64,000 nt of DNA, from NCBI GenBank assembly GCA_964016885.1, contig OZ024741.1, positions 321,966,001 through 322,030,000 of the forward strand, given 5' to 3'. A program made the position numbers and the translations under genes. Each line of letters starts with the position of its first letter. Position 1 is the stretch's first letter. Source of the stretch: Eledone cirrhosa. Its lineage: Eukaryota. The notes under the pieces were generated by a model. That model worked only from the letters and a program-made list of their open reading frames with translations, was not told where the DNA came from and did no database searches. This document shows positions 4,784 to 48,183 of this stretch, piece after piece.

Positions 4784-5081
4784 ATAAAAACAAATAACGA
4801 AACGAAATTAAATTTCGTTTCGTTTGTAACTCACTTTTGTATGACTGACGCTCAAACAATTAAGTCAAAGATGTACATCCATATATGTATACTGAAATAC
4901 TAGTATGTATATGAATACACACACGTATACATATGTAGATGTACCAAGTTTTTTTTCACTGATCACTTTACTGTGAGTGGCCAGCTATTCTGTATGTAAA
5001 CACACAGACAAACCGGTTTTTAGAGTCATACTGGTTTTTGAGGAAACACCTTTCCTCTATTCTCCAGAAAGCCAGACAAGG

Positions 5082-5126
5082 AATATTGAACTAGTTTCGT
5101 TGTTGTTACAACTCATCAGCAATATT
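5082..5126 (-). ncRNA. Type I hammerhead ribozyme, first of 6 minus-strand copies (starts 5082, 5551, 6020, 6489, 6958, 7427)
   Basis: Reverse complement of the motif described at 7845-7889. Confidence 0.88.
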
Positions 5127-7844
5127 TACCTATCTTCCGGCCTCTCTAGAGAATCGTAAAAGCACATATCGCTATATGCTTTTTCTATGAAAATTAGTAG
5201 TGGGCAGACCAACTTGCATAGAGTGTGAGTAAGTACCGGTTCAACGGAGACGATAAAAACAAATAACGAAACGAAATTAAATTTCGTTTCGTTTGTAACT
5301 CACTTTTGTATGACTGACGCTCAAACAATTAAGTCAAAGATGTACATCCATATATGTATACTGAAATACTAGTATGTATATGAATACACACACGTGTACA
5401 TATGTAGATGTACCAAGTTTTTTTTCACTGATCACTTTACTGTGAGTGGCCAGCTATTCTGTATGTAAACACACAGACAAACCGGTTTTTAGAGTCATAC
5501 TGGTTTTTGAGGAAACACCTTTCCTCTATTCTCCAGAAAGCCAGACAAGGAATATTGAACTAGTTTCGTTGTTGTTACAACTCATCAGCAATATTTACCT
5601 ATCTTCCGGCCTCTCTAGAGAATCGTAAAAGCACATATCGCTATATGCTTTTTCTATGAAAATTAGTAGTGGGCAGACCAACTTGCATAGAGTGTGAGTA
5701 AGTACCGGTTCAACGGAGACGATAAAAACAAATAACGAAACGAAATTAAATTTCGTTTCGTTTGTAACTCACTTTTGTATGACTGACGCTCAAACAATTA
5801 AGTCAAAGATGTACATCCATATATGTATACTGAAATACTAGTATGTATATGAATACACACACGTATACATATGTAGATGTACCAAGTTTTTTTTCACTGA
5901 TCACTTTACTGTGAGTGGCCAGCTATTCTGTATGTAAACACACAGACAAACCGGTTTTTAGAGTCATACTGGTTTTTGAGGAAACACCTTTCCTCTATTC
6001 TCCAGAAAGCCAGACAAGGAATATTGAACTAGTTTCGTTGTTGTTACAACTCATCAGCAATATTTACCTATCTTCCGGCCTCTCTAGAGAATCGTAAAAG
6101 CACATATCGCTATATGCTTTTTCTATGAAAATTAGTAGTGGGCAGACCAACTTGCATAGAGTGTGAGTAAGTACCGGTTCAACGGAGACGATAAAAACAA
6201 ATAACGAAACGAAATTAAATTTCGTTTCGTTTGTAACTCACTTTTGTATGACTGACGCTCAAACAATTAAGTCAAAGATGTACATCCATATATGTATACT
6301 GAAATACTAGTATGTATATGAATACACACACGTATACATATGTAGATGTACCAAGTTTTTTTTCACTGATCACTTTACTGTGAGTGGCCAGCTATTCTGT
6401 ATGTAAACACACAGACAAACCGGTTTTTAGAGTCATACTGGTTTTTGAGGAAACACCTTTCCTCTATTCTCCAGAAAGCCAGACAAGGAATATTGAACTA
6501 GTTTCGTTGTTGTTACAACTCATCAGCAATATTTACCTATCTTCCGGCCTCTCTAGAGAATCGTAAAAGCACATATCGCTATATGCTTTTTCTATGAAAA
6601 TTAGTAGTGGGCAGACCAACTTGCATAGAGTGTGAGTAAGTACCGGTTCAACGGAGACGATAAAAACAAATAACGAAACGAAATTAAATTTCGTTTCGTT
6701 TGTAACTCACTTTTGTATGACTGACGCTCAAACAATTAAGTCAAAGATGTACATCCATATATGTATACTGAAATACTAGTATGTATATGAATACACACAC
6801 GTATACATATGTAGATGTACCAAGTTTTTTTTCACTGATCACTTTACTGTGAGTGGCCAGCTATTCTGTATGTAAACACACAGACAAACCGGTTTTTAGA
6901 GTCATACTGGTTTTTGAGGAAACACCTTTCCTCTATTCTCCAGAAAGCCAGACAAGGAATATTGAACTAGTTTCGTTGTTGTTACAACTCATCAGCAATA
7001 TTTACCTATCTTCCGGCCTCTCTAGAGAATCGTAAAAGCACATATCGCTATATGCTTTTTCTATGAAAATTAGTAGTGGGCAGACCAACTTGCATAGAGT
7101 GTGAGTAAGTACCGGTTCAACGGAGACGATAAAAACAAATAACGAAACGAAATTAAATTTCGTTTCGTTTGTAACTCACTTTTGTATGACTGACGCTCAA
7201 ACAATTAAGTCAAAGATGTACATCCATATATGTATACTGAAATACTAGTATGTATATGAATACACACACGTATACATATGTAGATGTACCAAGTTTTTTT
7301 TCACTGATCACTTTACTGTGAGTGGCCAGCTATTCTGTATGTAAACACACAGACAAACCGGTTTTTAGAGTCATACTGGTTTTTGAGGAAACACCTTTCC
7401 TCTATTCTCCAGAAAGCCAGACAAGGAATATTGAACTAGTTTCGTTGTTGTTACAACTCATCAGCAATATTTACCTATCTTCCGGCCTCTCTAGAGAATC
7501 GTAAAAGCACATATCGCTATATGCTTTTTCTATGAAAATTAGTAGTGGGCAGACCAACTTGCATAGAGTGTGAGTAAGTACCGGTTCAACGGAGACGATA
7601 AAAACAAATAACGAAACGAAATTAAATTTCGTTTCGTTTGTAACTCACTTTTGTATGACTGACGCTCAAACAATTAAGTCAAAGATGTACATCCATATAT
7701 GTATACTGAAATACTAGTATGTATATGAATACACACACGTATACATATGTAGATGTACCAAGTTTTTTTTCACTGATCACTTTACTGAAAAGCATATAGC
7801 GATATGTGCTTTTACGATTCTCTAGAGAGGCCGGAAGATAGGTA

Positions 7845-7889
7845 AATATTGCTGATGAGTTGTAACAACAACGAAACTAGTTCAATATT
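7845..7889 (+). ncRNA. Type I hammerhead ribozyme, first of 12 plus-strand copies (7845+469k, last copy 13004-13048)
   Basis: AATATTG-CTGATGA-GTTGT(AACA)ACAAC-GAA-AC(TA)GT-T-CAATATT. It has a 7-bp stem I, an intact CUGAUGA and GAAA core, a 5-bp stem II, a palindromic minimal stem III (ACUAGU) and a GUU cleavage triplet (predicted cut after 7882). Confidence 0.9.
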
Positions 7890-10800
7890 CCTTGTCTGGC
7901 TTTCTGGAGAATAGAGGAAAGGTGTTTCCTCAAAAACCAGTATGACTCTAAAAACCGGTTTGTCTGTGTGTTTACATACAGAATAGCTGGCCACTCACAG
8001 TAAAGTGATCAGTGAAAAAAAACTTGGTACATCTACATATGTATACGTGTGTGTATTCATATACATACTAGTATTTCAGTATACATATATGGATGTACAT
8101 CTTTGACTTAATTGTTTGAGCGTCAGTCATACAAAAGTGAGTTACAAACGAAACGAAATTTAATTTCGTTTCGTTATTTGTTTTTATCGTCTCCGTTGAA
8201 CCGGTACTTACTCACACTCTATGCAAGTTGGTCTGCCCACTACTAATTTTCATAGAAAAAGCATATAGCGATATGTGCTTTTACGATTCTCTAGAGAGGC
8301 CGGAAGATAGGTAAATATTGCTGATGAGTTGTAACAACAACGAAACTAGTTCAATATTCCTTGTCTGGCTTTCTGGAGAATAGAGGAAAGGTGTTTCCTC
8401 AAAAACCAGTATGACTCTAAAAACCGGTTTGTCTGTGTGTTTACATACAGAATAGCTGGCCACTCACAGTAAAGTGATCAGTGAAAAAAAACTTGGTACA
8501 TCTACATATGTATACGTGTGTGTATTCATATACATACTAGTATTTCAGTATACATATATGGATGTACATCTTTGACTTAATTGTTTGAGCGTCAGTCATA
8601 CAAAAGTGAGTTACAAACGAAACGAAATTTAATTTCGTTTCGTTATTTGTTTTTATCGTCTCCGTTGAACCGGTACTTACTCACACTCTATGCAAGTTGG
8701 TCTGCCCACTACTAATTTTCATAGAAAAAGCATATAGCGATATGTGCTTTTACGATTCTCTAGAGAGGCCGGAAGATAGGTAAATATTGCTGATGAGTTG
8801 TAACAACAACGAAACTAGTTCAATATTCCTTGTCTGGCTTTCTGGAGAATAGAGGAAAGGTGTTTCCTCAAAAACCAGTATGACTCTAAAAACCGGTTTG
8901 TCTGTGTGTTTACATACAGAATAGCTGGCCACTCACAGTAAAGTGATCAGTGAAAAAAAACTTGGTACATCTACATATGTATACGTGTGTGTATTCATAT
9001 ACATACTAGTATTTCAGTATACATATATGGATGTACATCTTTGACTTAATTGTTTGAGCGTCAGTCATACAAAAGTGAGTTACAAACGAAACGAAATTTA
9101 ATTTCGTTTCGTTATTTGTTTTTATCGTCTCCGTTGAACCGGTACTTACTCACACTCTATGCAAGTTGGTCTGCCCACTACTAATTTTCATAGAAAAAGC
9201 ATATAGCGATATGTGCTTTTACGATTCTCTAGAGAGGCCGGAAGATAGGTAAATATTGCTGATGAGTTGTAACAACAACGAAACTAGTTCAATATTCCTT
9301 GTCTGGCTTTCTGGAGAATAGAGGAAAGGTGTTTCCTCAAAAACCAGTATGACTCTAAAAACCGGTTTGTCTGTGTGTTTACATACAGAATAGCTGGCCA
9401 CTCACAGTAAAGTGATCAGTGAAAAAAAACTTGGTACATCTACATATGTATACGTGTGTGTATTCATATACATACTAGTATTTCAGTATACATATATGGA
9501 TGTACATCTTTGACTTAATTGTTTGAGCGTCAGTCATACAAAAGTGAGTTACAAACGAAACGAAATTTAATTTCGTTTCGTTATTTGTTTTTATCGTCTC
9601 CGTTGAACCGGTACTTACTCACACTCTATGCAAGTTGGTCTGCCCACTACTAATTTTCATAGAAAAAGCATATAGCGATATGTGCTTTTACGATTCTCTA
9701 GAGAGGCCGGAAGATAGGTAAATATTGCTGATGAGTTGTAACAACAACGAAACTAGTTCAATATTCCTTGTCTGGCTTTCTGGAGAATAGAGGAAAGGTG
9801 TTTCCTCAAAAACCAGTATGACTCTAAAAACCGGTTTGTCTGTGTGTTTACATACAGAATAGCTGGCCACTCACAGTAAAGTGATCAGTGAAAAAAAACT
9901 TGGTACATCTACATATGTATACGTGTGTGTATTCATATACATACTAGTATTTCAGTATACATATATGGATGTACATCTTTGACTTAATTGTTTGAGCGTC
10001 AGTCATACAAAAGTGAGTTACAAACGAAACGAAATTTAATTTCGTTTCGTTATTTGTTTTTATCGTCTCCGTTGAACCGGTACTTACTCACACTCTATGC
10101 AAGTTGGTCTGCCCACTACTAATTTTCATAGAAAAAGCATATAGCGATATGTGCTTTTACGATTCTCTAGAGAGGCCGGAAGATAGGTAAATATTGCTGA
10201 TGAGTTGTAACAACAACGAAACTAGTTCAATATTCCTTGTCTGGCTTTCTGGAGAATAGAGGAAAGGTGTTTCCTCAAAAACCAGTATGACTCTAAAAAC
10301 CGGTTTGTCTGTGTGTTTACATACAGAATAGCTGGCCACTCACAGTAAAGTGATCAGTGAAAAAAAACTTGGTACATCTACATATGTATACGTGTGTGTA
10401 TTCATATACATACTAGTATTTCAGTATACATATATGGATGTACATCTTTGACTTAATTGTTTGAGCGTCAGTCATACAAAAGTGAGTTACAAACGAAACG
10501 AAATTTAATTTCGTTTCGTTATTTGTTTTTATCGTCTCCGTTGAACCGGTACTTACTCACACTCTATGCAAGTTGGTCTGCCCACTACTAATTTTCATAG
10601 AAAAAGCATATAGCGATATGTGCTTTTACGATTCTCTAGAGAGGCCGGAAGATAGGTAAATATTGCTGATGAGTTGTAACAACAACGAAACTAGTTCAAT
10701 ATTCCTTGTCTGGCTTTCTGGAGAATAGAGGAAAGGTGTTTCCTCAAAAACCAGTATGACTCTAAAAACCGGTTTGTCTGTGTGTTTACATACAGAATAG

Positions 10801-13267
10801 CTGGCCACTCACAGTAAAGTGATCAGTGAAAAAAAACTTGGTACATCTACATATGTATACGTGTGTGTATTCATATACATACTAGTATTTCAGTATACAT
10901 ATATGGATGTACATCTTTGACTTAATTGTTTGAGCGTCAGTCATACAAAAGTGAGTTACAAACGAAACGAAATTTAATTTCGTTTCGTTATTTGTTTTTA
11001 TCGTCTCCGTTGAACCGGTACTTACTCACACTCTATGCAAGTTGGTCTGCCCACTACTAATTTTCATAGAAAAAGCATATAGCGATATGTGCTTTTACGA
11101 TTCTCTAGAGAGGCCGGAAGATAGGTAAATATTGCTGATGAGTTGTAACAACAACGAAACTAGTTCAATATTCCTTGTCTGGCTTTCTGGAGAATAGAGG
11201 AAAGGTGTTTCCTCAAAAACCAGTATGACTCTAAAAACCGGTTTGTCTGTGTGTTTACATACAGAATAGCTGGCCACTCACAGTAAAGTGATCAGTGAAA
11301 AAAAACTTGGTACATCTACATATGTATACGTGTGTGTATTCATATACATACTAGTATTTCAGTATACATATATGGATGTACATCTTTGACTTAATTGTTT
11401 GAGCGTCAGTCATACAAAAGTGAGTTACAAACGAAACGAAATTTAATTTCGTTTCGTTATTTGTTTTTATCGTCTCCGTTGAACCGGTACTTACTCACAC
11501 TCTATGCAAGTTGGTCTGCCCACTACTAATTTTCATAGAAAAAGCATATAGCGATATGTGCTTTTACGATTCTCTAGAGAGGCCGGAAGATAGGTAAATA
11601 TTGCTGATGAGTTGTAACAACAACGAAACTAGTTCAATATTCCTTGTCTGGCTTTCTGGAGAATAGAGGAAAGGTGTTTCCTCAAAAACCAGTATGACTC
11701 TAAAAACCGGTTTGTCTGTGTGTTTACATACAGAATAGCTGGCCACTCACAGTAAAGTGATCAGTGAAAAAAAACTTGGTACATCTACATATGTATACGT
11801 GTGTGTATTCATATACATACTAGTATTTCAGTATACATATATGGATGTACATCTTTGACTTAATTGTTTGAGCGTCAGTCATACAAAAGTGAGTTACAAA
11901 CGAAACGAAATTTAATTTCGTTTCGTTATTTGTTTTTATCGTCTCCGTTGAACCGGTACTTACTCACACTCTATGCAAGTTGGTCTGCCCACTACTAATT
12001 TTCATAGAAAAAGCATATAGCGATATGTGCTTTTACGATTCTCTAGAGAGGCCGGAAGATAGGTAAATATTGCTGATGAGTTGTAACAACAACGAAACTA
12101 GTTCAATATTCCTTGTCTGGCTTTCTGGAGAATAGAGGAAAGGTGTTTCCTCAAAAACCAGTATGACTCTAAAAACCGGTTTGTCTGTGTGTTTACATAC
12201 AGAATAGCTGGCCACTCACAGTAAAGTGATCAGTGAAAAAAAACTTGGTACATCTACATATGTATACGTGTGTGTATTCATATACATACTAGTATTTCAG
12301 TATACATATATGGATGTACATCTTTGACTTAATTGTTTGAGCGTCAGTCATACAAAAGTGAGTTACAAACGAAACGAAATTTAATTTCGTTTCGTTATTT
12401 GTTTTTATCGTCTCCGTTGAACCGGTACTTACTCACACTCTATGCAAGTTGGTCTGCCCACTACTAATTTTCATAGAAAAAGCATATAGCGATATGTGCT
12501 TTTACGATTCTCTAGAGAGGCCGGAAGATAGGTAAATATTGCTGATGAGTTGTAACAACAACGAAACTAGTTCAATATTCCTTGTCTGGCTTTCTGGAGA
12601 ATAGAGGAAAGGTGTTTCCTCAAAAACCAGTATGACTCTAAAAACCGGTTTGTCTGTGTGTTTACATACAGAATAGCTGGCCACTCACAGTAAAGTGATC
12701 AGTGAAAAAAAACTTGGTACATCTACATATGTATACGTGTGTGTATTCATATACATACTAGTATTTCAGTATACATATATGGATGTACATCTTTGACTTA
12801 ATTGTTTGAGCGTCAGTCATACAAAAGTGAGTTACAAACGAAACGAAATTTAATTTCGTTTCGTTATTTGTTTTTATCGTCTCCGTTGAACCGGTACTTA
12901 CTCACACTCTATGCAAGTTGGTCTGCCCACTACTAATTTTCATAGAAAAAGCATATAGCGATATGTGCTTTTACGATTCTCTAGAGAGGCCGGAAGATAG
13001 GTAAATATTGCTGATGAGTTGTAACAACAACGAAACTAGTTCAATATTCCTTGTCTGGCTTTCTGGAGAATAGAGGAAAGGTGTTTCCTCAAAAACCAGT
13101 ATGACTCTAAAAACCGGTTTGTCTGTGTGTTTACATACAGAATAGCTGGCCACTCACAGTAAAGTGATCAGTGAAAAAAAACTTGGTACATCTACATATG
13201 TATACGTGTGTGTATTCATATACATACTAGTATTTCAGTATACATATATGGATGTACATCTTTGACT

Positions 13268-17983: not shown

Positions 17984-18600
17984 CAATCTGGTGGTCTACA
18001 TGTTATGTGTACCCAGTACAACATGTAAACTGTTTGGTGATAGGAAGGCCATCCAGCTATAGAAAACGTACCAAATAGAGTAGAGAGGACTCTTCAGTTG
18101 TGTCATAGACATAACAACCTCTCTAGTGTTGGTAATTTACTCGATAAACGCACTCAATACACCCTGTAAAGTGGTTGATGATAAGAAGGGAATCCAGCTG
18201 CAGAAAATCTGCCCCCCCCCCCAAAAAAAAAGGGTTGGCAAGACTCTTCTGCTAAGCCAAGGATATGACAATAAAATGCACACAGTAAAGCATGGGATCA
18301 ATCCGTGATGACATATCCAACCCTTGCTAGCAGGGAAAATGGACATTAAACAATGATGACAATAATAATTTTTTCTGTTTGAATATATAAGATGGTTTCA
18401 AGTGAAAGGTGTCAACCATCTCATCTTAGTAATTAACATCAAGTGTAAAGAAACAAACCAATTAATTGGTATATTTCTAATTGCTTATTGGAATCGAATA
18501 TTTGCATATTTATTCATACATATATCATCATCATCATCATCATTTTACGTCCGCTCTTCCCTGCTTGCAAGGGTGGGACCAATATATATATATATATACA

Positions 18601-19503
18601 ATATGTTGAAAAGGTAACACACTAGAGAGAGATACAGTGCGCCATCAATAAAACAGGGAAAAACCAGCAGTGTATGGAATCTATAACCTATGAAAGGCAG
18701 GGTAGACACACGTGGGTGTTATATAGTTATAGAGGTATGTATATACACTTTAATTTATATTTTTAATTATAGTGTGTCTACCCTGCCTTTCATAGGTTAT
18801 AGATTCCATACACTGGTGGTTTTTCCCTGTTTGATTGGTGGCGCACTATCTCACTCTGGTCTGTTACCTTTTCAACATATTGTATTTTAAAGAGCTCAGG
18901 ATTCCTTCTCCTTTGAGCACATTACTGACAGGGAATAGCGAGAATCTATGACTCTGTTAATTTATTGTGTTATTTCGCTCCTTATAACAGTCTTTCCTCT
19001 CTCTCCGTTTGGTTGAGCACACTTCTCTGTGTGGTTTTGGGCTGCCCTTTCTAGCAGCTCGTCCCTCAGACACCACTGGTTCCCTGCCCTAAACACACTG
19101 TGACTTCTCTCTCCCACATGTAGCTGGACAGTCGCTTTAAATTCTCTTAGAGTTGTCTGAACTGTATAGCCTTACACACGCTGATGAACCATGGACTATT
19201 TATTTCTGTCAACAACTTACTGGTGAAACAGATCTCTTTGGATTTGTACGTGTGTGTTATATAGTTATAGAGGTATGTATATACACTTTAATTTATATTT
19301 TTAATTACTGCGTGTCTACCCTGCCTTACATAGGTTATAGATTCCATACACTGGTGGTTTTTCCCTGTTTGATTGATGGCGCACTATCTCTCTCTAGTGT
19401 GTTACCTTTTCAACATATTGTATTTTAAAGAGCTCAGGATTCCTTCTCCTTTGAGCACATTATTGACATGGAATAGCGGCAGTCTATGGCTCCGTTAATT
19501 TAT

Positions 19504-19508
<5 letters not shown>
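18601..19508 (+). mobile_element. Penelope-like / retrozyme insertion: inverted partial copy (18601-18711), full 538-bp unit (18711-19248) and partial direct copy (19249-19508)
   Basis: 18711-18968 is repeated at 19249-19508. 18601-18711 is the reverse complement of about 18772-18880. The HHR sits at the unit boundary. TA tracts on both sides. Confidence 0.85.
19173..19256 (+). ncRNA. Type I hammerhead ribozyme with a full stem III
   Basis: TACACACG-CTGATGA-ACCA(29 nt)TGGT-GAA-ACAGATCT(CTTT)GGATTTGT-A-CGTGTGTG. GUA cleavage triplet, predicted cut after 19248. Stem I is extended by ACTGTATAGC/GTTATATAGT. Confidence 0.85.
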
Positions 19509-19560
<52 letters not shown>

Positions 19561-19561
19561 T

Positions 19562-19949
19562 GTATACAGATGGTGGATGGGTGCTACACGAGAATGGAGC
19601 CTCCCAAAAGTCAGCTCAAAAGTGACACAGAGGAGACTGAGGTTAGCTGGACATGCTCACTGACATCCAGAGTTGACATTGCACTCAGTGCTCCTATGGG
19701 AGCCCCTGCATGGACAAACTGGAAGAGGAAGACCAAGGTTAACATATGTTGATGCTCTAAGGACAGACACTGGTCTGTTGGAGACGCAGGACATGGCAGC
19801 GATAATGAGGGACAGAGACCGCTGGAGAGAACTCGTCCATGGATCTCGGGAATTTTACTCGCCCTAGATATATATATATATATCTAGGGCGAGTAAAATT
19901 CCCGAGATCCATGGACGAGTTCTCTCCAGCGGTCTCTGTCCCTCATTAT
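19562..19949 (+). mobile_element. RTE-like LINE 3' end followed by an inverted copy of its last ~65 bp
   Basis: Encodes LLWEPLHGQTGRGRPRLTYVDAL...DRDRWRELV. Perfect palindrome 19802-19949 centred on a (TA)n run. Confidence 0.8.
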
Positions 19950-24140: not shown

Positions 24141-24220
24141 TAGGAGGTGAGTTTTATTGTAGTACAATAAAGCAATGCAGATATCGGATAAGAAGCACTC
24201 TACAGTTTGTGGGACTGGAG

Positions 24221-24481
24221 TATGCATAATATAAGATCAAAAGATGGTTAAAGGAGTTCCATATATTTTATTATGCGCATTTCAAAAACAAACATCATCA
24301 AGCAATAATATTTGTGTTTTCATCAGATAAAACAGGAGAACATGATAGCCTTCAGATCATGTTCTCCTGTCTTATCTGATGAAAACACAAATATTATTGC
24401 TTGATGATGTTTGTTTTTGAAATGCGCATAATAAAATATATGGAACTCCTTTAACCATCTTTTGATCTTATATTATACATA
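24221..24481. repeat. Near-perfect palindrome (about 126-bp arms, 9-nt spacer) with a hammerhead motif in each arm
   Basis: Arms are 24221-24346 and 24356-24481; spacer AGCCTTCAG. Confidence 0.92.
24369..24437 (+). ncRNA. Type I hammerhead ribozyme (mirror copy on the minus strand at 24265-24333)
   Basis: GT(C/T)TTAT-CTGATGA-AAACACAAATATTATT(GCTT)GATGATGTTTGTTTTT-GAA-ATGCGCAT-A-ATAAAAT. Long stem II, palindromic stem III, AUA triplet. Confidence 0.75.
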
Positions 24482-43279: not shown

Positions 43280-43359
43280 ATAATGGTTTCTGATTTCGAC
43301 AAACGACCAACATCAATTAAATTGACCACAGAGTGTTACTGATACTTTATTTTATTGAC

Positions 43360-46127
43360 CCTGGATCTCTCTGAGAACGTTGTTGCTCTTCCCCTCCACT
43401 AGTCCTCTATAGAACGCCGAGGTGGATGTTCCACCGATACTGGTGCCCAGCTGGCAGAGGGCAGTGAGCGCCTGGAGACATTCCAGTTTCCAAGTACTAT
43501 CCCTCGGTCTTTTTCTGACCCAGGACTGCAGCTCCGTCAAGGAGACGAGCTGTGGGAAAACGTGCCTGGCGAACGGCAACCACACCTGTTCACCGTCAAG
43601 GAAGCACCAGAGATGTCGCAGCCTCAGCGCATGTTTGCGCATCATCAGCCATGGCATGCCCAGTCCTCCACGCAACGGGTGTTGACAGCAGATGGATCGC
43701 CTGACCATGGGAGCGCGTCCCTTCCACAAAAAGTGGAAGAGAAGGTGCTTCATTTTGGTGAGAGTTGGGCCGGAGCAAGGGTCGACGGTGAGGCGGTAGC
43801 AGATGACGGATGCGATGTACGCATTCCCCACCTCCGCCCAGCCTTTCAGGGACAGCTTCCTCTCGGCCCATTTCTGGGTGAGGGAGGCCACCTTGCTCGT
43901 CACCTCATTCCAGTTTTTCTCCATCTGGAGGTCCGGTCCGAACCAGACCCAAAGCAATTTAACCGGTCCGTCTGTCCAACATCCCACGACGCTGTCGGAT
44001 GGCATGGACTTGCCTCTCCAGGTGCCGAGCTGCAAGCCCACCGACTTTTCCTGGTTTATCTTTGCTCCTGTCACCGCTTCGTATTCCTTGAGAGCGGTGC
44101 CGAGCATCTGGACGTGTCTGGTGCTCGACACCACCACGGTGACGTCGTCGGTCTAAGCCGACTCGGATTTCCCGCATCCTAGTTCACGTGGGACGCCCCT
44201 CATCGCCCCCAGTTTGTGCAGTAACAGCTCGAGAGCCAATATGTACAAGAGGGACGAGAGGGGACAACTCTGGCGGACTGAGCGCATGATGCTGAACGGC
44301 TGCGACAGGTGACTGTTCACCCTCACAACTGAGCAGATGAAAACGGGCCCAAAACCGGCTGCCTCGAGGACCGCCACCAGGTACCGATGGTCGACCCTAT
44401 TGAATGCTTTGGATTGATCCATGCTGATCAGGGCCCCAGCCGTGCCAGGTTCCTTAACCACCCTGTCTATGATGTATCGCATGAGGCGGAGGTTGTTGTG
44501 TAAAAATCTGTCCAGAATAGCGCATGTCTGCGCCTCTTCAACCAGACCCTTCACGACAAGCGCCAACCTCGTTATGGGCCTGAAATTATCGATAACATCC
44601 CCCTTGTTCGGGGTTTTTATCAGTAGCGCCACCACTCCCCGGCTCACAAAACTGGGAATGCTCCCGTTCTGCTGCCAGTTGCAGTAGACGTCTGCCAAGA
44701 GGTCACCGAACAAGTCTGGCATAAATGCATAAAGCTCGTAAGGCAGACCATCCAAACCTGGCGATTTACCCCTCGTGCAGTTAGCCATCGCTTCCCGTAT
44801 TTCACCGGCTGTTATTGGCTTTTCGCAACACTGTGCTGCGGACGTTGAGGGCCGAGGCAGTCCGTCGAGGTATGCACTGAAGTCCATGCCCCGATCCGGG
44901 CCGCCGCTGCTCCCGAACAGTTCAGCAAAGTGCTGCTGAAAAGCTTCACACATCTGCTCGAGTTCAAGCAACACGCGCCCGTTTTGGTCAGACAAAGACC
45001 GAATTGTGGCTTTGTTGCCATGTCATGCCTCTGCCACCCGGGCCCATTGGACGGCTTTTGTCCCCTCGTGTTTCAGAGCACGCGCTCTAGCTCTGACAAC
45101 GCAGCCTTCGTGTTTTGTGTTGAAGAATTGGTTGAGTGCTAATCTCGCCGCAAGCACGTCGGTTGCGATGCCTGTTCTAAATGCCTCTTCTAGCTTTCTG
45201 ACTAGCTCTCCCTCTACTCTATTTTCTTCTATCACTAGTCCTTTGCTAAACCTAATCGACTCTACTTTAATTGTCTTTTTCAGGGCAAACCACCACCTGT
45301 TGTTGACGACCGCTCCCGTCAACGCCCGCTTAACTAATACGCTAATCCGGTCTCTGTAGGCTTTGCGTGCCGGGAAAGACGCGTTCAGCTTCCAGTAACT
45401 GGGCTCTTGTCTATGAAGTCTGTCTATGTCGATCTCACAGATCACAAATTTGTGGTCTGTGGAGTTGACTATTTTAAATTGTGGACAACTTATACTAGAC
45501 TTATCTAGTTCTCTGCAGAATACCCTATCGAGATATGATCTGGATGACCCGGTGCGGTTTGTCCATGTCCACATTGGCACAGTCGGGTGATCCAGTCGAT
45601 ACCTGTCAGACAGTTCAATATGTCTGAGCAGGTTGGTGAGGCTCTTGCATCCTCCTCCCCTATCCACTAGCCCCACACAATCCCAGCGTGCATCCAAGAT
45701 ACCGTTCCAGTCGCCCACTAACACTAAAGAGCGGGACGTTCCAAGAAAGGTCTCTAGACGTCTGAAGAAATCTGGCCGTCCTGCCCCTGTTGGGGCATAG
45801 ACGGCTACTAGCCTTAAAGCATTGCCTTCGCTGCCGGTCACGTCTAGCACCACCGACTTACCTTCTGGGTCTAGGAAGATGGCCCGTACGGCGAGATCCA
45901 AGCCTCTCCGAAAAAGGACAGCAACCCCCCCCCCCCCGATCTTGGACGGCTGGGAGATATGTATACATTGTAGCCGCCGGTGTGAAGGTTTGTGCTTTGG
46001 AGATTCTGGTCTCACTGATGGCCACCACATCTATGTTTAGTGACCTGAGGTCGTTGAGCAGGTGACCCTGCTTCCAAGATGACCCCAGGCCATGTGCATT
46101 TATACTGCCTATTCTGAGTACGGCCAT
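43360..46127 (-). pseudogene. Tx1/L1-clade LINE ORF2 (APE endonuclease plus reverse transcriptase), frameshifted and 3'-truncated
   Basis: Endonuclease motifs: MAVLRIGSINAHGL, ISET, AVYAP, LVGDWN, SYLDRVF, TDHK, YWKLN. RT motifs: KSPGLDGLPYELY, NFRPIT, DQSKAFNRVDH, SVRQSCPLS. The Y codon of YADD is mutated to a stop near 44153. Confidence 0.93.
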
Positions 46128-46159
46128 GTTGGATGAGAAACGGGCCAAGTGAGAAAGGG

Positions 46160-48183
46160 TCACTTACCTTGATCGTGTGGTGAAGGGACAGTAGAACCGA
46201 CCCTTTGGCTGGTCATGGGTGTTTCCAAGAGGATGTCAGTGTATATCCTATTGGTAACCGACCCTCTGAAGTCTCCAACTGCGTTGGGGAAATTTTGTTT
46301 TAAAGGTTTGTACTGTTCTATTGAGATTTCAATGATGCTTATGTTTGTTGGGAGAGTTCTTGGTGTTGGTGGGGTGTAGTAGTTTTTTTCTGTGATATCT
46401 GTGTGCTGCTTTATATATTGTATGAGTTCTTTTTTTGCCATATTTATGGCTGTGTACTTTTTGGGGGGAGGGGTAATTTTGTTGCTGTTTTCTTCTTGTT
46501 GCTGTTTGGTGTGTGTGTTTTGTTTTGTTTGCGTTGTTGGTGTTTTTGGTGATGCTGGTGGTGGTGTGGTAGTTGTTGGCGGTGGTGCTTGTGGTGGTGA
46601 TGGTGGTGGTGTTGCTGCAAGTTTCCTTGCTGCCTTTACTCCTCTTTGTGTACCTTCGCTTTTGGAGGGTGAATCTAAGGGCTTTTTTGTTTTTTGTTTT
46701 TTGTGGCAGACCGTTTGCCACTTCACTCCCGCCTCAAACTCCATGTCAGATTCCGTGGTGTCTGGGAGGGGTATATGCTCCACGGCTGTTGGTGGTGGTA
46801 GTGGAGCCCTCTTCGGCAATTTTGTTGCTGGTGTAGCTACTTCAAATGTAGCTATTGGTGTTGCCGCCACTGATGCTGCTGCTGTCGTTGTACATGGCCT
46901 TGGTATGGGTGCCACGGACGTTGCCCTCCTACTCACCGTGGAAGGGGCTTCTGCGTTTGTTGCCTGCCCTGCTCTTGGTAGCAGCGGACCAGGTATTGGA
47001 AGGAGAGGGGCCTTCTTCTTCGCTGTCTTCTGCGGGCAAAAGGTCCTGAGGTGACCCTTCGACCCACAGAGATAACATTTTGGTCATCTTCCTTCTACGC
47101 TTATAGGGAGTTGGAGTCCTTCCTCGATGTCTATGATATCGGGGATAGCGCCGATACATTCCTGGTCGGTTTGTATAAGCATTTGCATGCCTATACCTGA
47201 CCAGTTCTCTCTCCCTATTTTTTCTACTTGCAGCATGGTCGTCCTGTCCTCGATTCCAGCAAGGACAGACGCAGCCAGCCAAGGTATGGGCACGTCGGGT
47301 GGGACCTGGGTCACTTTGACCCTCACAATTTTCTGCCCGCAGTAGGAGGGCACCAAGACTATCTCCTCACTCTTGAGGGTTTCCAAAGAGTGAGACTTTG
47401 CTTCCTGGGAGGTGGCGAAAAGTACGTCTACTGTGGCGTACTTTCTGCCTCGGGTGATGTGGGTTTTGCGTGCCCAGACGCACCCCAAGGCCTTTTGGAT
47501 TTGAGCCTCCGTGGCTCTCTCCACCCGATGTGAGATTTTGCTTACGGTGCGGTAAGTCACCGTCCGTAGCTGCTGGTCCTTGAAAAAAAATTGGGTGGAG
47601 GTTTCAGGGAGACTCTATTGGCGCTTCTTGTCACCATGGCCCTTGCAACTGCCATCTCCTCCTCTGTGACTAACACTGTCTTGATATTTCAGGCGACACC
47701 TGTAAAAGAAGTGGTCCCTTTTTCAGCAGCACCACTATTGCTGCCGCTACTGGTCTTACTGGTGGTGCTGAGATCGCTGTTACAGGTATCGCTGTCATTG
47801 TTGATGTTTTCGTTGGTACAGTTGTTGGTGGTGTTGTTGTTGTTTTCGTTGATACTGTTGCTGTTGTTACTGTTGTTATTATTGTTGTTTTTGTTGATAC
47901 TGTTCCTACTATTATTGTTGTTGTGGCTGTTATTGTCATTGTTATTGTCGTTCTCGACCTTACCGCTGTTATTTTTGTTGTTGCTGTTGTTATTGATGGT
48001 GTTGTTGTTGGTGTTGTTTGTGTTAGAAATATTTGGTAGTTTTAAATCTGTAACAATCCTCTTTTCCTTTGTAATATTTTCATTTATATTTACCTCCGCT
48101 GGAACGCTGTCTTGTTGACATGCTGATAAAGTCCCCCTCTCTCTGTGTTGTCTGACAGCGCGCTCTCTCTTTGTGTTATCCAT
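46160..48183 (-). pseudogene. Tx1/L1-clade LINE ORF1 (gag-like, CCHC zinc knuckle, Asn-rich N-terminus)
   Basis: ATG at 48183. In-frame TGA at 47689 and 47084; frameshift in the A8 run at 47583-47590. CYLCGSKGHLRTFC knuckle at about 47036-47077. Ends just upstream of the ORF2 ATG. Confidence 0.85.

Follow-up and report, generated by a model that had tools for sequence, protein, structure and literature searches.

The analysed window, a 64-kb stretch of Eledone cirrhosa DNA, contains at 18596-19511 a non-coding element (longest stop-to-stop frame 95 aa) in which a 538-bp unit is repeated 1.5 times behind an inverted partial copy of itself (Table 1). This extent runs slightly beyond the span given in a preliminary description of the locus, whose account of an inverted partial copy ahead of a direct copy was borne out. 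The two copies of the direct repeat, spaced 538 bp apart (18710-18973 versus 19248-19511), are identical at 242 of 260 positions, the inverted arm matches the unit with 93-96% identity, and most of the differences between copies at this locus are private to a single copy, as expected for decay after insertion. The long arm measures 801-802 nt (about 1.5 units) and crosses the downstream cut site predicted for a hammerhead ribozyme, 19248/19249, intact; the short arm measures about 114 nt, and both outer ends of the element sit within TA runs. The junction between the arms may be placed at 18710, 18711 or 18712, because A18710 also equals A19248 and the bases 18710-18711 are common to both arms. 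The window's junction variant is 2 nt longer than the commoner variant of the family. The preliminary description had the upstream copy start exactly at the base equivalent to the predicted cut; the copy does begin there, but the 2-nt ambiguity means that 18711-19248 is not an exact cleavage-to-cleavage monomer. The element is adjoined by a near-perfect inverted repeat at 19810-19948, which belongs to a very high-copy repeat and has a short TA run at its centre.

Table 1. Features of the 538-bp-unit element and its flanks (window coordinates).
Feature	Position	Strand	Basis
Left (TA)n target microsatellite	18582..18598	.	sequence; (TA)3 proximity of standard ends
Inverted arm covering 62-175 of the unit; outer terminus at fixed site A (~175)	18596..18711	-	alignment
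Head-to-head junction with 2-nt microhomology, at the predicted cut of the unit +/-1 nt	18710..18711	.	
Full 538-bp unit, non-coding, 41% G+C	18711..19248	+	
Type I hammerhead motif, predicted cut after GUA 19248, read through in the window arm	19173..19256	+	
Incomplete second unit covering 1-263; outer terminus at fixed site B (~263)	19249..19511	+	
One-sided 'tail' of 88 nt between sites A and B (unit 176-263)	19424..19511	+	
Right (TA)n target microsatellite	19508..19566	.	

The type I hammerhead reported in the preliminary description was found as stated, with stems I, II and III of 8, 4 and 8 bp, a 29-nt loop II, the core CTGATGA/GAAA and GUA at 19246-19248, so that the window copy has the core CUGANGA and GAAA, an NUH triplet and three stems with stem I open. 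An Rfam scan of the 64-kb window gave no hammerhead model match at the gathering score, and in the window copy the hammerhead fold lies at -15.8 kcal/mol versus -19.4 kcal/mol for the minimum-energy fold, i.e., 3.6 higher (z -1.44). Across the loci L001-L116 we counted 72 hammerhead motifs, and the motif is a feature of the family far beyond chance. In 55 distinct copies 91.5% of the structure cells were paired (97.7% for stem I and 93.8% for stem III), and five cells had changed on both sides, including a two-sided change in stem I (0 of 500 shuffles). The kept pairing suggests a hammerhead fold and counts as support rather than proof, because the copies, 57 of the 72, were picked through the core motif and are related to one another. 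The stem II closing pair next to the core was non-standard, mostly A.C, in 39 of the 55 copies and A-U in the other 16, the window copy included.

To place the window element in its family, an 18-base motif of the 538-bp unit was searched in the 3.0-Gb host assembly and gave at least 2,572 exact matches, against 0 for a control motif. The family has well over a thousand copies, a number lower than that of the matches because insertions often hold two of them. The first 100 matches by position yielded 86 loci, from which two duplicates were dropped to leave a position-ordered sample of 84; one place that was already among the 30 best hits was not taken a second time. Alignment of these loci to the 538-bp unit gave 154 arms, mostly 0.3-1.5 units long. 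Divergence inside one insertion had a median of 5.0% (72 tandem pairs and 96 arm pairs), compared with 9.8% and 9.3% to other loci for the tandem and arm comparisons, respectively, and 29 of the 96 arm pairs were among the closest 5%. The lower divergence within insertions is as expected from one template or one subfamily plus decay, and the likeness is consistent with one molecule and with one subfamily alike.

The outer ends of the arms are fixed. In the 84 position-ordered loci, 124 of the 154 aligned arms had a 3′ end at unit positions 168-181 or 255-266, hereafter standard ends, which correspond to two sites, A and B, spaced 88 nt apart, and 116 of 126 standard ends lay within 12 nt of (TA)3, an AT-rich microsatellite target that is thus observed directly. 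The sample contained 49 two-armed clusters (34 with both ends standard and 15 with one non-standard end), 35 single-armed clusters ending at either site, and 4 clusters that were complex or of other form. Where both ends were standard, 33 of the 34 two-armed insertions had one end of each kind, a ratio that became 49 of 51 on adding the 30 best hits. The family therefore combines an inverted, 5′-truncated copy with a tail at one end only, as in insertions mobilised by Penelope, and the fixed outer ends, one-sided tail and TA target support the Penelope-type inverted-plus-direct layout that had been proposed for the locus. Fold-backs at short palindromes account for a small number of junctions (e.g., at L002 and L027), as would be expected if the layout had formed at the DNA level from a dispersed satellite, whether through folding back, unequal recombination or an error of assembly. 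For the family as a whole such an origin is highly improbable, since the two arms use different fixed sites for their outer ends in 33 of 34 insertions and are mostly not mirror images about the junction, and since the family is also present at high depth in contigs of two other runs from one sample.

The preliminary description further took the window copy as a genomic footprint of ribozyme activity in vivo, with a template RNA whose 5′ end was generated by self-cleavage, and proposed to compare the 5′ boundaries of the family with the GUA site. Had the 5′ ends been fixed at the cut, the genome itself would have offered proof, of a rare kind, that hammerheads of the Penelope type do cut inside cells; Frangieh et al. 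(2024; PMC11167929, in its accessible text) leave this question open. When this comparison was made, the 5′ ends proved to be scattered over the whole unit. A standard 3′ end was present in 124 arms, of which 23 exceeded one unit in length. The cut was reached by 66 of the 124, and 64 of these read through it while two (at L087 and L104) stopped there; all six arms that reached the cut a second time also read through, and one arm with a non-standard 3′ end, outside the 124, stopped 2 nt short of the cut (L086). Genome-wide, 1,275 arms had an intact GTA/CG junction among approximately 1,712 anchored just downstream, the two counts using slightly different anchors, and about 1% of the 1,712 anchored arms stopped within 1 nt of the cut, versus about 0.3% per base elsewhere. 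About 97-99% of the family copies that reach the cut thus run through it, and as a family rule neither a 5′ end made by self-cleavage nor a footprint of activity in vivo survived this tally.

Junctions near the cut were then compared position by position, using listings made with mismatch-filter patterns whose rows were sorted by eye. A first filter gave 56 rows, from which 18 were removed because they were read-throughs with a mutation, an indel or a deletion and 15 because they lay at the anchor edge, and the remaining 23 junctions were spread over nine positions, with nine located one base 5′ of the cut and one at the cut (p 0.004 after multiplication by nine). A second filter gave 80 rows with 43 junctions over 24 positions (about 1.8 per position), and here one junction lay one base 5′ of the cut and two at the cut, versus 3.6 expected, whereas unrelated positions 10, 11 and 15 nt upstream of the cut had four to five each. 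In a direct comparison, the 62 rows of the cut pattern comprised 49 read-through variants, nine arms at eight loci ending one base 5′ of the cut, none at the exact cut among arms not followed by C, and four internal deletions starting at the cut or one base beyond; three exact-cut arms followed by C came from the other junction listings. The 21 rows of the control pattern held three and three arms at two positions, the first of them three bases further. The difference of nine versus three arms had a p of 0.07, that of eight versus three loci a p of 0.11, and the two positions pooled (9 versus 6) a p of 0.30. The surplus of ends at the base just 5′ of the cut does not exceed a few-fold and is non-significant in the direct test, and the supply of microhomology could account for it, since GT, the dinucleotide at the peak, occurs 38 times in the unit, about three times as often as CG, the one at the exact cut (12 times). 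An apparent concentration of 5′ ends up to 15 nt on either side of the cut, seen in the position-ordered loci (0.95-0.98% per nt versus 0.32% overall), was not reproduced, as 100 arms had 12 ends over a 44-nt stretch (about 0.3% per nt) and the second filter was flat.

These counts bear on whether a self-cleaved RNA, from whose 5′ end the reverse transcriptase ran off, was the template of the window copy and of a minority of others, which would then record ribozyme activity. We regard this as unlikely. It would account for a window arm that starts within 1 nt of the predicted cut, for the 2 of 66 arms that also stop there, for the genome-wide surplus at the base just 5′ of the cut and for the four deletions that begin at or next to it; against it stand the non-significant direct test, an exact cut position that is not enriched, a second filter with larger counts at unrelated positions, and the possibility that the supply of GT microhomology shifted ends to the peak. 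In addition, a cleaved monomer cannot template the read-through at 19248/19249 without ligation or a jump. The weak excess leaves room for a minor side route through cleavage at the level of the family, and there is a real, if minor, chance that the 5′ end of the window copy itself arose in this way. Its start at the predicted cut is likely a coincidence or the product of a rare side route, and not proof of cutting in the cell, because nearly all copies that reach the cut read through it.

The arm ends and deletions that accumulate, in small number, one base beyond the scissile bond could also be read as the scar of a ribozyme junction, left by a Penelope enzyme that rolls round a self-cleaved and re-ligated or nicked circle from two fixed sites, one per strand, and stumbles about three times more often at the seal. 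We consider this reading rather doubtful; if true, it would provide evidence, at the level of DNA, that retrotransposition in an animal proceeds through circular RNA. The four internal deletions, of 13-19 nt (G000 C4:188610057, C5:103146396, C1:332943609 and C1:403014966), resume in stem III and may have arisen through template jumping at the ribozyme junction or as simple deletions by microhomology. At another place (G000 C3:366311037) an inversion junction lies between both strands of hammerhead stem I, so that the complementarity within the stem carries one arm over into the other.

Other elements in the window carry hammerheads as well. A near-identical 469-bp head-to-head array at 4784-13267 (6.4 + 11.7 units) has a minimal-stem-III hammerhead in each unit and outer ends that lie in TA-rich runs, at unit positions of about 302 and 225, a distance of 77 nt; its unit has no sequence relation to the 538-bp unit, and as a same-window control neither of its arms begins at its cut (the starts lie 95 and 354 nt upstream). 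A short head-to-head pair at 24196-24481 belongs to another hammerhead family (motif 24326-24272, minus strand), with arms 95% alike, outer ends about 46 nt apart and a motif shared with two loci with GIY-YIG matches (L212 and L225). At 43352-47614 on the minus strand lies what appears, judged from translations alone, to be a broken LINE-like element whose frames, resembling an endonuclease and an RT, are split into pieces.

The explanation that we favour, with a probability of roughly 0.7, is that the 538-bp element is a non-autonomous retrozyme put into (TA)n by a Penelope-like enzyme that primes from both target strands at two internal sites of an uncut or re-ligated, probably circular, template. 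The two-armed layout, fixed outer ends, read-through and scattered 5′ ends are, like the TA target, direct observations, and it is from this layout together with the work of Frangieh et al. (2024; PMC11167929) that we infer the identity of the enzyme, the priming from two strands and the circular form of the template. As far as the accessible text of that study goes, both strands of AT-rich DNA are cut in vitro by the Penelope protein, which also extends them; it starts at two positions inside the RNA, and the distance between these equals the genomic tail. It inserts uncleaved RNA with no need for the hammerhead to cut, and none of the reads had an end at the cut; our tally agrees with that study in that templates are read through the cut site. 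On this explanation a Penelope-like reverse transcriptase/endonuclease would cut a (TA)n run and each target strand would prime one cDNA, one initiating at unit position 175 and its partner at 263. Both cDNAs would run toward and across the predicted cleavage site on an uncut or re-ligated RNA, halt at variable points and then be joined via short microhomology. In the window copy the long arm would have run about 1.5 units and been joined by chance at the cut position.

A circular template, which Cervera and de la Pena have proposed (PMC4209133, PMC7229834, in their accessible parts), fits these observations, and the read-through fits an uncut multimeric transcript or template jumps equally well. 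A linear template, transcribed from a genomic tandem array as an uncut multimer or by read-through, with a ribozyme (inactive or protein-dependent) that plays no role in mobilisation, would share the priming mechanism of the favoured explanation and differ in the form of the template alone. The prevalence of read-through in the family, the non-standard stem II closing pair of 39 of 55 copies, a lowest-energy fold that differs from the hammerhead fold, and the failure of eight of nine Xenopus retrozyme dimers to cleave in vitro (bioRxiv 10.64898/2026.07.22.740005, in the part available) all agree with it. However, the pairing of stems I and III and the two-sided change in stem I suggest selection on the fold, and long donor arrays were scarce in the sample, where the longest of the 124 arms measured 1,603 nt and a single run of four anchors at 539-bp spacing was found. 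We hold a linear template to be a tangible possibility, though well short of probable.

An autonomous partner was sought through the GIY-YIG domain, for which there were 10,595 first-look candidates, with 150 listed and 50 loci examined. Among these 50 of the 150 listed loci, none had an autonomous element with the 538-bp unit as its repeat, and the unit matched them in just two places, an independent fragment of 66 nt and a weak hit of 57 nt (E 0.019). This result weighs against the favoured explanation, as does a tail of 88 nt where the literature gives 30-40 nt. The window element has no RT or GIY-YIG ORF between its repeats, no unit-aligned arm in L001-L116 required an ORF-sized insert, and, as judged from its sequence, the window element is not an autonomous Penelope. 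The host genome does carry ORFs with RT and GIY-YIG, one of them 938 aa long without stops. This frame (L207:3809-6622, minus strand; G000 C1:145.87 Mb) has RT and C-terminal GIY-YIG matches and is a candidate intact Penelope-like element.

On sequence criteria the 538-bp element is a retrozyme-type member, apparently inserted like Penelope. It is like the metazoan non-LTR retrozymes (PMC7229834; bioRxiv 10.64898/2026.07.22.740005), as far as their accessible text describes them, in its tandem unit, which is non-coding, low in GC and carries one type I hammerhead, in a unit length within their reported 51-972 bp, and in the proposed circular RNA template and copying by Penelope-like enzymes. 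It differs from them in that metazoan retrozymes form long arrays, while the arms of this family mostly comprise 0.3-1.5 units; in its 8-bp stem III with a 29-nt loop II, compared with a stem III that usually has 1-2 bp; and in the two-armed layout with fixed ends, a feature absent from the portions of the retrozyme accounts that were compared. The window locus departs from retrozymes in one further respect, by holding one hammerhead motif, whereas L004, L006, L022 and L063 agree with them on this point. Retrozymes are described in the accessible part of the same preprint (bioRxiv 10.64898/2026.07.22.740005) as non-autonomous derivatives of Penelope-like elements.

With endonuclease-bearing Penelope-like elements (PMC8557442, PMC3846280, PMC11167929, PMC4209133; accessible parts), the family shares a partial tandem plus an inverted 5′-truncated copy, a tail at one end, AT-rich or microsatellite targets, a hammerhead in the repeat and two internal start sites; the inverted copy, one-sided tail and microsatellite bias have been described for these elements before (PMC8557442, PMC3846280). 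It is unlike them in having no ORF and a tail of 88 nt compared with the published 30-40 nt, and the rule of one end of each kind was counted here. R2 retrotransposons with an HDV-like ribozyme, in which cleavage takes place precisely where the element's 5′ junction lies (PMC3774820, in its accessible text), are a precedent for the idea of a ribozyme-defined 5′ end; the 538-bp family lacks such an end, with a 5′ junction at the cut in about 1-3% of cut-reaching arms. Searches of the openly available literature listed no paper dealing with the 538-bp family or with any tally of retrozyme 5′ ends against the cut. The family is new, and its component features are already known. Its lasting value is that of a clean, counted model family, in which the two start sites are spaced by 88 nt, each arm uses one of them and the target lies in TA repeats, and which is suited to testing both two-strand priming and a circular template.
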